Of a stretch of 64,000 nt of DNA, positions 48,562 through 62,274 are shown piece by piece. Location: NCBI RefSeq assembly GCF_057098645.1, contig NZ_CM169472.1, one strand, 5' to 3'. Below the pieces are notes generated by a model. That model worked only from the letters and a program-made list of their open reading frames with translations, ran no database searches and was not told the DNA's origin. The translations under genes were made by a program, and so were the position numbers. Position 1 is the first letter of the stretch; every line of letters begins with the position of its first letter.

Positions 48562-48705
48562 TGAGGGTAGAGCGGGGTTTCCCCCGCCCTGGTAGTCTTA
48601 GTAAGCGGGGAAGCTTATGACTAAGAGCACCACGATGATGAGTAGCTTCATCATGACCCTTTCCTTATTTAAGGCCCCTTCCTCGGGAGGGGCTTTCCCG
48701 TTTCA
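48562..48705 (+). ncRNA. sibB: Sib antisense sRNA, copy 2 (sibB-like); ends approximate
   Basis: Promoter TTGACA 48527-48532 / TACTTT 48550-48555; antisense to ibsB; terminator hairpin about 48674-48693 then T-rich run. Confidence 0.7.
48598..48654 (-). CDS. ibsB: Type I toxin peptide IbsB (18 aa, MMKLLIIVVLLVISFPAY)
   Basis: Translated directly from the minus strand; matches my recollection of K-12 IbsB (from memory, not searched). Confidence 0.85.
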   Translation of the reverse strand: MMKLLIIVVLLVISFPAY

Positions 48706-48889
48706 GCGTCCCGCTGAAATCTTCGGCTTACCTCCTTTCGCCCTGTATGCAGTCTATCGCTGACTTGCGGATAAAATAGTTTCAAGTGTGATTATTGCGT
48801 AACGACTCGCAAAGAATATTTGCTGGCAGGATCGCAGACTGCAAAGCCTGCAGATTGACAATCTTATCGTGAAGGCATACTTTCAGGAG

Positions 48890-49033
48890 TGAGGGTAGAG
48901 CGGGGTTTCCCCCGCCCTGGTAGTCTTAGTATGCTGGGTAGCTAATCACTAAGAGCACCACGATGATGAGTATCTTCATCATGACCCTTTCCTTATTTAT
49001 GGCCCCTTCCTCGGGAGGGGCTTTCCCGTTTCA
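48890..49033 (+). ncRNA. Sib antisense sRNA, copy 3 (third tandem module); ends approximate
   Basis: Promoter TTGACA 48855-48860 / TACTTT 48878-48883, identical to copy 2; terminator hairpin about 49003-49022. Confidence 0.65.
48926..48982 (-). CDS. Ibs-family type I toxin peptide, third copy (18 aa, MMKILIIVVLLVISYPAY)
   Basis: Translated directly; differs from the copy-2 peptide at positions 4 and 15 (L to I, F to Y). Confidence 0.75.
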   Translation of the reverse strand: MMKILIIVVLLVISYPAY

Positions 49034-49189: not shown

Positions 49190-49207
49190 TTTTTCTCCCT
49201 TATTGGC
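49190..49207 (+). promoter_or_regulatory. BaeR box upstream of mdtA
   Basis: tttttctcccttattggc matches 17 of 18 positions of the BaeR consensus TTTTTCTCCATDATTGGC as I remember it; about 55 bp upstream of the mdtA ATG. Confidence 0.7.
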
Positions 49208-58124: not shown

Positions 58125-59524
58125 AGTTCTGGCGACCCGGTATTACCGGCAAACTGTTTCTGGCGATTTTCGCCACCTGCATTGTCTTGCTGATCAGTAT
58201 GCACTGGGCGGTGCGTATCAGTTTTGAGCGTGGCTTTATTGATTACATCAAGCATGGTAATGAACAGCGATTACAACTGTTAAGTGATGCGCTTGGCGAG
58301 CAGTATGCGCAGCATGGCAACTGGCGCTTCCTGCGCAACAATGATCGCTTTGTCTTTCAGATCCTGCGTTCATTTGAACACGATAATTCGGAAGATAAAC
58401 CCGGCCCGGGTATGCCACCGCACGGCTGGCGTACCCAGTTCTGGGTGGTTGATCAAAACAACAAAGTGCTGGTTGGTCCGCGAGCGCCGATTCCACCTGA
58501 CGGTACACGGCGACCCATTCTGGTCAACGGTGCGGAAGTTGGCGCGGTGATCGCCTCCCCCGTTGAGCGGTTAACGCGCAATACTGATATCAATTTCGAT
58601 AAACAACAGCGGCAAACCAGCTGGTTGATTGTCGCCCTGGCAACGTTACTCGCGGCACTTGCCACTTTTCTGCTGGCGCGCGGTTTACTGGCACCGGTAA
58701 AACGACTTGTCGATGGCACGCACAAACTGGCGGCGGGCGATTTCACTACCCGCGTAACGCCCACCAGTGAAGATGAACTGGGCAAACTGGCGCAAGACTT
58801 CAACCAGCTTGCCAGCACACTGGAGAAAAACCAGCAAATGCGGCGCGATTTTATGGCCGATATTTCTCACGAACTGCGTACGCCATTAGCGGTGCTGCGC
58901 GGTGAACTGGAAGCCATTCAGGATGGCGTGCGTAAATTCACGCCGGAGACGGTGGCGTCTTTACAGGCGGAGGTCGGTACACTGACCAAACTGGTTGACG
59001 ATCTCCATCAGTTGTCGATGTCTGATGAAGGCGCTCTCGCCTATCAAAAAGCACCGGTAGATTTGATCCCACTGCTGGAAGTGGCGGGCGGCGCATTTCG
59101 CGAACGATTCGCCAGTCGTGGCCTGAAACTGCAATTTTCCCTGCCAGACAGTATTACCGTATTTGGCGATCGCGACCGTTTAATGCAGTTATTCAATAAC
59201 TTACTGGAAAACAGCCTGCGCTACACTGACAGCGGCGGCAGCCTGCAAATCTCTGCCGGGCAGCGCGACAAAACGGTGCGCCTGACCTTTGCCGACAGTG
59301 CGCCAGGTGTCAGTGACGATCAGCTACAAAAATTGTTTGAACGTTTTTATCGCACCGAAGGTTCCCGCAACCGTGCCAGCGGCGGTTCCGGGCTGGGGCT
59401 GGCGATTTGCCTGAACATTGTTGAAGCACATAATGGTCGCATTATTGCTGCCCATTCGCCTTTTGGCGGGGTAAGCATTACAGTAGAGTTACCGCTGGAA
59501 CGGGATTTACAGAGAGAAGTATGA
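58121..59524 (+). CDS. baeS: Envelope-stress sensor histidine kinase BaeS
   Basis: 467 aa; H-box SHELRTPL; HATPase region; 4-nt overlap with mdtD. Confidence 0.95.
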
Positions 59525-60243
59525 CCGAGTTACCAATCGACGAAAACACACCGCGTATTTTGATCGTGGAAGATGAACCGAAGCTGGGGCAGTTGCTCAT
59601 TGATTATCTGCGTGCTGCGAGCTATGCGCCGACGCTTATCAGCCACGGCGATCAGGTACTGCCGTATGTGCGCCAGACACCACCGGATCTGATCCTGTTA
59701 GATCTGATGCTCCCTGGCACCGATGGCCTGACGCTGTGCCGGGAAATTCGTCGTTTTTCTGACATTCCGATCGTGATGGTGACGGCAAAAATCGAAGAGA
59801 TCGATCGCCTGCTGGGGCTGGAGATTGGCGCAGATGATTATATCTGTAAGCCGTACAGCCCACGGGAAGTGGTAGCGCGCGTCAAAACCATTTTGCGCCG
59901 TTGCAAACCGCAGCGCGAGTTGCAGCAACAGGATGCTGAAAGCCCGTTGATTATCGACGAAGGTCGTTTTCAGGCTTCATGGCGCGGTAAAATGCTTGAC
60001 CTGACGCCTGCGGAATTTCGTCTGCTGAAAACGCTCTCTCACGAACCAGGAAAAGTGTTCTCCCGCGAGCAATTGCTCAATCATCTTTATGACGACTACC
60101 GCGTAGTAACCGACCGCACCATCGACAGCCACATTAAAAACCTGCGCCGCAAGCTGGAATCTCTCGACGCCGAACAGTCATTTATCCGCGCCGTTTATGG
60201 CGTCGGTTACCGCTGGGAAGCCGACGCCTGCCGCATCGTTTAG
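59521..60243 (+). CDS. baeR: OmpR-family response regulator BaeR
   Basis: 240 aa; receiver domain plus winged-helix; 4-nt overlap with baeS. Confidence 0.95.
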
Positions 60244-60433
60244 TTTTAGCGACATTATTTTGTTAGCCGGAGATGGCGTTCAGACCAGATCCGGCAACAT
60301 TATCCCACGCATGGTCAGCAAACTGACATTATCTCTCCGCCCTGGCAGGCATCAGAAAATCGCTCATACTTTAATCGGTAAACAGCACCTTTAGATGCTG
60401 TTTTCGATACACAATTTCAATCAAGGAGTCATT

Positions 60434-60766
60434 ATGGCTGGTTGGTTTGAACTCAGTAAGAGCAGTGATAATCAGTTCCGGTTTGTGCTAAAAGCGGGCA
60501 ATGGTGAGACTATCCTCACCAGCGAGCTTTATACCTCAAAAGCCTCTGCGGAAAAGGGCATCGCGTCGGTGCGTAGCAACAGCCCGCAAGAAGAACGCTA
60601 TGAGAAAAAAACGGCAAGTAACGGCAAATTCTATTTCAATCTGAAAGCCGCTAATCATCAAATTATCGGCTCCAGCCAGATGTACGCCACCGCGCAATCT
60701 CGTGAAACCGGAATTGCCTCCGTTAAAGCCAATGGCACAAGCCAGACGGTGAAAGACAATACGTAA
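60434..60766 (+). CDS. yegP: UPF0339 (DUF1508) tandem-repeat protein YegP
   Basis: 110 aa from ATG 60434 (MAGWFELSK...) with AAGGAG RBS; two internal about 50-aa repeats. Confidence 0.85.
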   Translation: MAGWFELSKSSDNQFRFVLKAGNGETILTSELYTSKASAEKGIASVRSNSPQEERYEKKTASNGKFYFNLKAANHQIIGSSQMYATAQSRETGIASVKANGTSQTVKDNT

Positions 60767-60912
60767 TTACGATGCCGGGCGTGGGTTGTTGGCGTCCGGC
60801 GCTTTACCAGATCCCCCCACAGCGCTACAATGCCCGCCCTTAAAGTGGAGGCACTCCCCTAACCGCTTCATCAGGTGAAGCGGATCTGACCTGTCATCAG
60901 AACGAGAGAATT

Positions 60913-62274
60913 ATGTTTAAACCGGAACTCCTTTCCCCGGCGGGAACGCTGAAAAATATGCGTTACGCTTTCGCTTATGGCGCAGATGCTGTTTATGCGG
61001 GCCAGCCGCGTTACTCCCTGCGTGTGCGCAACAACGAATTCAACCACGAAAATCTTCAGCTCGGCATCAATGAAGCCCACGCGCTGGGGAAAAAGTTTTA
61101 TGTCGTGGTCAACATTGCACCGCACAACGCCAAGCTGAAAACCTTTATCCGTGACCTGAAACCGGTGGTGGAAATGGGGCCGGATGCGCTGATTATGTCC
61201 GATCCAGGGCTGATTATGCTGGTGCGTGAGCACTTCCCTGAAATGCCGATCCACCTCTCGGTGCAGGCTAACGCCGTAAACTGGGCGACGGTGAAATTCT
61301 GGCAGCAAATGGGCCTGACCCGCGTGATCCTCTCTCGCGAGCTGTCGCTGGAAGAGATTGAAGAGATCCGCAATCAGGTGCCGGATATGGAGATCGAGAT
61401 CTTCGTTCACGGCGCACTGTGCATGGCCTACTCCGGTCGCTGCCTGCTCTCTGGCTATATCAACAAGCGCGATCCGAACCAGGGTACCTGCACCAACGCC
61501 TGCCGCTGGGAGTACAACGTCCAGGAAGGGAAAGAAGATGACGTTGGCAACATCGTACACAAGTACGAGCCGATTCCGGTGCAAAATGTTGAGCCGACGC
61601 TGGGTATCGGCGCGCCAACCGACAAAGTGTTTATGATCGAAGAAGCCCAGCGTCCGGGCGAGTATATGACCGCGTTTGAAGATGAGCACGGCACTTACAT
61701 CATGAACTCGAAAGATCTGCGCGCCATCGCCCATGTAGAACGCCTGACCAAAATGGGCGTGCATTCGCTGAAAATCGAAGGCCGTACTAAATCTTTCTAC
61801 TATTGCGCACGCACCGCACAGGTTTACCGTAAAGCTATCGATGACGCCGCTGCGGGCAAACCGTTCGATACCAGCCTGCTGGAAACTCTGGAAGGTCTGG
61901 CGCATCGTGGCTATACCGAAGGTTTCCTGCGTCGTCATACTCACGACGATTATCAGAACTACGAATACGGTTATTCAGTTTCTGACCGCCAGCAGTTTGT
62001 TGGTGAGTTTACCGGTGAGCGCAAGGGGGACCTCGCGGCGGTAGCGGTGAAAAATAAATTCTCCGTTGGCGACAGCCTTGAGCTGATGACGCCGCAAGGC
62101 AACATTAACTTTACCCTTGAGCACATGGAAAACGCCAAAGGTGAAGCGATGCCGGTCGCACCAGGCGATGGTTATACTGTGTGGCTCCCGGTCCCGCAGG
62201 ATCTTGAGCTCAATTACGCTCTGCTGATGCGTAATTTCTCCGGGGAAACCACGCGTAACCCACACGGTAAGTGA
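60913..62274 (+). CDS. yegQ: Peptidase U32-family protein YegQ (TrhP-like)
   Basis: 453 aa; MFKPELLSPAGTLKNMRYAFAYGADAVYAG typical of U32 family. Confidence 0.92.
   Translation: MFKPELLSPAGTLKNMRYAFAYGADAVYAGQPRYSLRVRNNEFNHENLQLGINEAHALGKKFYVVVNIAPHNAKLKTFIRDLKPVVEMGPDALIMSDPGLIMLVREHFPEMPIHLSVQANAVNWATVKFWQQMGLTRVILSRELSLEEIEEIRNQVPDMEIEIFVHGALCMAYSGRCLLSGYINKRDPNQGTCTNACRWEYNVQEGKEDDVGNIVHKYEPIPVQNVEPTLGIGAPTDKVFMIEEAQRPGEYMTAFEDEHGTYIMNSKDLRAIAHVERLTKMGVHSLKIEGRTKSFYYCARTAQVYRKAIDDAAAGKPFDTSLLETLEGLAHRGYTEGFLRRHTHDDYQNYEYGYSVSDRQQFVGEFTGERKGDLAAVAVKNKFSVGDSLELMTPQGNINFTLEHMENAKGEAMPVAPGDGYTVWLPVPQDLELNYALLMRNFSGETTRNPHGK

Follow-up and report, generated by a model that had tools for sequence, protein, structure and literature searches.

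yegP of Escherichia coli: a gene for an anciently duplicated DUF1508 didomain, very probably transcribed independently of the neighboring baeSR genes

The structure of E. coli YegP was solved by nuclear magnetic resonance (NMR) in 2008 (PDB 2K8E), and tandem DUF1508 domains have since been described as symmetric pseudo-dimers, whereas their single-domain relatives form homodimers (bioRxiv 10.1101/2024.11.21.623966). According to the same preprint, tandem DUF1508 precedes the ubiquitin-like domain in Bub operons. In the Menshen system, tandem DUF1508 takes the sensor position of NsnA and was likened to the sPC4/Whirly superfamily (PMC12065111), and 57 cases of tandem DUF1508 downstream of a DNA-damage-responsive capK-capS pair, activated by single-stranded DNA (ssDNA), have been published. 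Here we describe the yegP gene of a 64,000-nucleotide stretch of contig NZ_CM169472.1 (NCBI RefSeq assembly GCF_057098645.1; the whole stretch is referred to below as the window). In our reading, yegP very probably encodes an anciently duplicated DUF1508 didomain and is an independently transcribed general-stress gene outside the Bae operon; what the present analysis shows directly is that the sequence repeats, how it folds, how old the duplication is and in which order its copies stand, that the promoter is conserved, that a BaeR box is absent and that linkage to baeSR is narrow.

The coding sequence starts with the ATG at 60434, ends with the TAA at 60764-60766 and yields on translation a product of 110 amino acids (aa); the features of the locus are listed in Table 1. 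The region 60100-61000 is identical (100%) to E. coli O145:H28 genomes, where RefSeq labels the genes baeR, yegP and yegQ, and it was found in 5423 of the 5426 complete E. coli genomes; yegP is a core chromosomal gene of this species. The gene order is mdtC-mdtD-baeS-baeR-yegP-yegQ(trhP)-yegR-yegS, and the open reading frame (ORF) ends, 60243 for baeR and 60434 for the start of yegP, agree with the gap of 190 nucleotides (nt) given in a preliminary description of the locus. An ORF of 123 aa starting from the ATG at 60395 was ruled out; this ATG is not conserved in 7 Enterobacteriaceae, all of which keep both the Shine-Dalgarno sequence and the ATG at 60434 unchanged, and therefore the 110-aa start was preferred.

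The preliminary description interpreted YegP as an internal tandem duplication of a module of about 50 aa and proposed self-alignment and structure prediction as checks. The duplication was confirmed: BLASTP of residues 1-58 against residues 59-110 produced an ungapped alignment with 18 identities in 44 positions (41%), 66% positives and an E-value of 7e-11, and the local BLOSUM62 score of 86 was reached by none (0) of the 5000 shuffles of the C-terminal half (mean 23.2, standard deviation 4.6; z = 13.5). Given these scores, the duplication is real and lies far outside what chance would give. The halves are offset by 51 aa, with the aligned cores at 60461-60592 and 60614-60745; the two peptides compared initially, residues 15-49 and residues 66-100, agree at 17 positions out of 35. 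The Pfam family DUF1508 (PF07411) matches YegP twice, with 153.1 bits at a cut-off of 22, the first match spanning residues 11-57. Moreover, YegP has the two-domain, N-then-C layout of approximately 110 aa and can be aligned from end to end with 26 orthologues (48-94% identity). The tandem duplication is already known from the double Pfam match, the 2K8E structure and the preprint on pseudo-dimers.

The AlphaFold2 model of YegP, computed from an alignment of 27 sequences (predicted local distance difference test, pLDDT, 91.4), contains the strand-strand-strand-helix pattern twice, in register with the repeat, so that the proposed structure prediction likewise gave one and the same pattern for both halves. 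In a Foldseek comparison with 2K8E, the model had a template modeling (TM) score of 0.95 and a root-mean-square deviation of 1.1 A. The duplicated secondary structure is consistent with a symmetric pseudo-dimer of the two halves, an arrangement that is otherwise derived from the literature. The halves would pack as an intramolecular pseudo-dimer in place of the homodimer of single-domain relatives, YegP thereby reaching within one chain the arrangement formed by single-domain UPF0339 homodimers, such as HVO_2922 (6Q2Z), Atu0232 (2K7I) and NMB1088 (3BID), which have one domain per chain and 2-8 chains per entry. The K-12 protein of 2K8E is the product of the same gene, also with two DUF1508 domains, and is one substitution apart: 109 of 110 residues are identical, with Ala37 here and Thr37 in the deposited sequence. 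By contrast, Shewanella oneidensis SO_3888 (PDB 2K49) differs in context, as a Shewanella locus (S. xiamenensis, L078) has neither baeSR nor yegQ nearby. Thr37 is a phosphosite reported for K-12 YegP (PMC8055822). Codon 37 of yegP (60542-60544) encodes Ala in the window strain, and other genera have Ala or Ser at this residue; as the phosphosite residue is not kept across genera, its phosphorylation cannot be a conserved regulatory feature.

The likeness of the two halves might also be explained by a recent duplication or by ongoing gene conversion within E. coli, for which the likeness itself, and nothing more, can be cited. At the DNA level, however, the halves are only 50% identical, and third codon positions match in 16 cases out of 44. 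Among 26 representatives (50% or more divergence), the identity is 49% for N-N and 48% for C-C comparisons, and N-C identity is nearly the same within a protein (37.5%) and between proteins (36.7%). Low identity at third codon positions, together with equal N-C identity within and between proteins, indicates one old duplication without gene conversion. The N-then-C order is, moreover, shared from Shewanella to the metagenomic arrays described below. A recent origin is thus refuted by the codon-level and N-C identity data, and we attach practically no probability to it.

A search of 1.84 billion representative sequences revealed 3802 relatives of YegP with sizes up to 1561 aa. The number of DUF1508 domains per protein is mostly even (2, 4, 6, 8, 10), and when adjacent domains of multi-domain proteins are taken in pairs (397 in total), an N-type domain is followed by a C-type one in 330 pairs and the order is opposite in 3; therefore, later amplification and fusion acted on the didomain as a unit. 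The ancient age of the duplication and the N-C pair as the amplified unit are new details beyond the known structure. In the scenario that we propose, one ancient tandem duplication of a module of approximately 51 residues would have produced the cytoplasmic, 110-aa, two-domain YegP, and the N-C didomain would have been duplicated again into long arrays and fused to other domains.

Arrays of five to nine or more N-C didomains, with linkers of about 45-50 aa, make up a set of metagenomic proteins (P0121-P0166 and others) that are 500-1561 aa long. One gene for such an array (L088, 5001-7229) is located near PKD and Por-secretion-tail genes, and some other array proteins end in a proprotein-convertase P-domain.

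As for regulation, genomic SELEX (systematic evolution of ligands by exponential enrichment) had placed a site for the RNA polymerase holoenzyme (RpoD), CTGGCA-17-CATACT, between baeR and yegP (PMC3946193), and the same hexamers at the same spacing are present in the window. The CATACT -10 element is invariant in 7 Enterobacteriaceae sequences, although the baeR-yegP gap as a whole has only 51% column identity; a simple sigma-70 scan did not pick up this promoter. Hence yegP has what is expected of a member of the RpoS regulon, namely a promoter of its own with a conserved -10 element. The gene would be transcribed from this promoter as a general-stress gene, its RpoS dependence being taken from the literature: a 185-fold dependence on rpoS was reported in strain EDL933, yegP was described as a hub of multi-stress induction, and in a study of zinc stress, YegP co-varied with Dps, OsmY and OtsB, while baeS and mdtA do not appear in the main text.

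Downstream of yegP, the hairpin at 60774-60800 has an invariant stem base (GCCGGG/CCCGGC) and compensatory changes in its inner pairs (6 sequences), and a promoter-like sequence of yegQ, TTTACC-17-TACAAT, follows it. Since this conserved hairpin stands ahead of the yegQ promoter-like site, yegP is probably monocistronic, as judged from the sequence.

The preliminary description suggested co-regulation of yegP with baeSR and the envelope stress response. In that case yegP would be the distal gene of the mdtABCD-baeSR operon or co-regulated with it, either through read-through from baeR or under direct control by BaeR. Both genes are indeed on the same strand, 190 nt apart, but the gap between them contains the conserved promoter of yegP. 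Read-through is favored by the E. coli hairpin after baeR, which has no U-run, and by a terminator scan of the E. coli gap, which yielded just one weak candidate of 5 bp; in the relatives, however, canonical terminators separate baeR from the yegP promoter, as the alignment revealed a GC hairpin with a T-run between the baeR stop codon and the promoter in Enterobacter, a related metagenome-assembled genome (MAG) and Kluyvera. Direct control was addressed by a scan with what we take to be the BaeR-box consensus. The window as a whole has one match, at 49190-49207; it is located 54-71 nt upstream of the annotated mdtA start and therefore serves as a positive control; in the gap (60244-60433), no box was found at up to 3 mismatches.

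The order mdtD-baeS-baeR-yegP-yegQ, which also speaks for co-regulation, is kept in Escherichia, Citrobacter, Kluyvera and Enterobacter. Yet among 80 genomes with a YegP orthologue (63-94% identical), baeS and baeR upstream and yegQ downstream of it were found in five; these are from Escherichia, Citrobacter and Kluyvera, together with an Enterobacter-like MAG, all core Enterobacteriaceae. Linkage to baeSR was not seen in the other 75 of the 80, including Erwinia, Rosenbergiella, Pseudomonas, Acinetobacter, Stenotrophomonas, Shewanella and several Betaproteobacteria. That yegP adjoins baeSR is an accident of gene order particular to one lineage, and no conserved association stands behind it. 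None of the three publications found to name both yegP and baeR draws a functional link between them, and the literature puts yegP under RpoS, with YegP following Dps, OsmY and OtsB under zinc stress. With its own promoter, no BaeR box, the RpoS literature and the narrow linkage, co-regulation with baeSR is not supported, and we consider it improbable.

Table 1. Positions of yegP and associated features in the window.
Feature	Position	Strand	Basis
yegP coding sequence, YegP family / UPF0339	60434..60766	+	translation; annotation; one residue off PDB 2K8E
N-type DUF1508 domain, residues 3-55 (strands 4-9, 15-20, 26-29; helix 36-49)	60440..60598	+	domain hidden Markov model (HMM) envelope, Pfam, model
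C-type DUF1508 domain, residues 56-106 (strands 56-60, 66-71, 77-80; helix 87-100)	60599..60751	+	domain HMM envelope, model
Shine-Dalgarno sequence AAGGAG	60423..60428	+	TCAAGGAGT and ATG invariant in 7 Enterobacteriaceae
yegP promoter: -35-like CTGGCA (60342-60347), 17-nt spacer, -10 CATACT (60365-60370)	60342..60370	+	hexamers and spacing as in the genomic-SELEX site
Hairpin after the baeR stop codon, no U-run; putative terminator, weak or partial, for mdtABCD-baeSR transcription	60261..60299	+	minimum-free-energy fold
Hairpin of 13 bp in the yegP leader, located at the inferred transcription start or just past it; putative role	60374..60408	+	fold
GC-rich hairpin after the yegP stop codon, followed by GCTTTACC; likely weak terminator	60774..60800	+	fold

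Several points weigh against our reading of yegP as an ancient didomain gene with its own stress promoter. The geometry of the pseudo-dimer relies on the cited preprint and on duplicated secondary structure. The profiles used for N/C typing were built from YegP-like proteins, and the typed protein set was also found with a YegP query. As the hairpin after baeR lacks a U-run, some read-through from baeR is possible in E. coli; furthermore, it was the RpoD holoenzyme that bound the SELEX site, and the sequence cannot tell the use of sigma-S from that of sigma-70. On the side of function, basic charge is not conserved, the isoelectric points (pI) of the representatives being 5.3-10 and 7% of the orthologues being acidic; YegP matched 0 families among the PADLOC-DB profiles; no neighbor conserved across genera was found at 80 orthologue loci; and we know of no DUF1508 protein with a known biochemical activity.

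By analogy with related proteins, the YegP didomain might be a small module that accumulates under stress or in stationary phase and binds either single-stranded nucleic acid or a partner associated with nucleic acids, although we put this forward only tentatively. If the didomain is a binder of single-stranded nucleic acids of the sPC4/Whirly type, YegP of stationary-phase cells could coat ssDNA or RNA or act as a sensor of it. Such a role was proposed for the tandem DUF1508 of Menshen NsnA (PMC12065111), and it agrees with the fusions to HEPN RNase, HTH (helix-turn-helix), H1-like tail and nuclease-inhibitor domains, with the association with ssDNA-activated CapK-CapS regulators, with the induction of HVO_2922 alongside DNA-repair genes, and with the mostly mildly basic character of YegP orthologues (median pI 8.8). 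The literature calls the sPC4/Whirly superfamily similar in topology (a dimer of small units of beta-sheet and helix); our searches disagree, as no PC4/Whirly similarity of YegP was recovered in structure searches, and membership in the superfamily is not supported. The didomain could also be a protein-protein adaptor or spacer with no role in nucleic acid binding, YegP binding or shielding a protein partner under stress; here, there is no known partner, no neighbor is conserved across genera, and the similarity to All3315 is weak by sequence (E-value 2.5). Our preferred description of YegP is thus broader, a small module under general-stress induction that would bind some ligand; nucleic acid and protein ligands seem to us about equally likely, and each of them is doubtful when taken separately.

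The fusion partners bear on the same question. YegP-like didomains are fused to HEPN_RiboL-PSP (P0253), HTH_3 (P0201), an H1-like tail (P0261) and NuiA (P0225), with P0253 and P0201 being 54-60% identical to YegP across the didomain; by analogy, these fusions weakly suggest a ligand- or nucleic-acid-binding module. The N-termini of Menshen NsnA, the Bub DUF1508-Ubl proteins and the HEPN, HTH and NuiA fusions have the N-type plus C-type didomain as in YegP, and the didomain would gate effectors there (the HEPN RNase, the HTH protein whose gene directly follows that of a HipA-like kinase, Menshen NsnA and the ubiquitin-like proteins of Bub). The N-C didomain may, then, be a portable sensor of a nucleic-acid or damage signal and YegP its free-standing, stress-induced form, which we regard as a speculative possibility. 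Unlike the effector fusions, YegP is a stand-alone, core chromosomal protein with no defense-system neighbors and no PADLOC match.

Gene contexts were obtained for two metagenomic fusions. A 323-aa protein (L086, 6001-6972) combines a YegP-like didomain (54% identity) with a C-terminal HEPN RiboL-PSP domain, which belongs to a family of predicted RNases; its gene is located among housekeeping genes, and PADLOC gave no match. A 228-aa protein composed of an XRE-type HTH and, after it, a YegP-like didomain (60% identical to YegP) was found at two loci (L089, 3655-5687; L090, 1483-3515). This HTH-didomain gene (P0201) follows directly on a gene for a 449-aa HipA_C kinase, with whose end it shares 4 nt, and a PIN/PhdYeFM toxin-antitoxin pair is present near these genes; the HipA_C and HTH-didomain pair may be a reversed HipA-type module whose partner protein carries DUF1508. 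The contigs carrying P0200 and P0225 were too short for an informative gene context.

The stand-alone didomain is conserved across Gamma- and Betaproteobacteria. Clusters of neighboring genes are genus-specific (Pseudomonas, Acinetobacter), and thus no operon partner emerged. Among phage protein families, phrog_1422 of PHROGs matches YegP over its full length, and tblastn of YegP against 50,697 phage records yielded 3 matching records, two of which are 254-kb contigs labeled 'Acinetobacter phage'; yegP is thus not a typical phage gene. Six of the 11 listed matches to E. coli and Acinetobacter plasmids are 3.6-4.9 Mb long and therefore look like chromosomes filed as plasmids.

Intergenic regions of the locus contain additional features. 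No consensus structure of the yegP leader was found across genera, the 60374-60408 hairpin being common to E. albertii only and hence confined to Escherichia. A scan of 59500-61500 against Rfam (E-value up to 1) gave only a chance-level match to PhotoRC-I (E-value 0.91; 15 bits against a gathering score of 45 bits). The divergent E. coli strain SCPM-O-B-8794 (L007, 5771-6000; 91% identity in YegP) has a baeR-yegP gap that is approximately 40 nt longer and contains a different post-baeR hairpin (CCCTCTC...GAGAGGG), while the CATACT -10 element is kept. The yegP-yegQ/trhP intergenic region (60802-60912) includes about 100 nt that are near-invariant in Escherichia, Citrobacter, Kluyvera and Enterobacter, with a mean column identity of 81% versus 51% in the baeR-yegP gap. 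This stretch contains the TACAAT -10 element at 60826-60831 and two hairpins, the second of which, CCGCTTCA...TGAAGCGG (approximately 60863-60885), shows compensatory changes; no Rfam family matched it. The region may be a conserved regulatory leader of yegQ, the tRNA ho5U-modification gene. At the other end of the mdt-bae locus, the annotation places two Ibs-family type I toxin genes a short way upstream of the promoter region of mdtA (window 48598-48982; NZ_CP028379.1 2700879-2701263).

As a discovery, the internal repeat of YegP carries little weight: the duplication is recorded in Pfam, visible in the 2008 structure and printed as a pseudo-dimer. The useful outcomes are the corrected regulatory reading, in which yegP is, very probably, an independent RpoS-type stress gene and not a member of the Bae regulon, and a sharper picture of its evolution, with a single ancient duplication, after which the didomain was amplified and fused as one unit. 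YegP is a conserved, highly stress-induced E. coli protein with a known structure, and its fusion partners suggest nucleic-acid or sensor hypotheses. Should the didomain prove to be a sensor module, the solved structure of YegP would provide a handle on the ligand of a whole class of defense and stress sensors.
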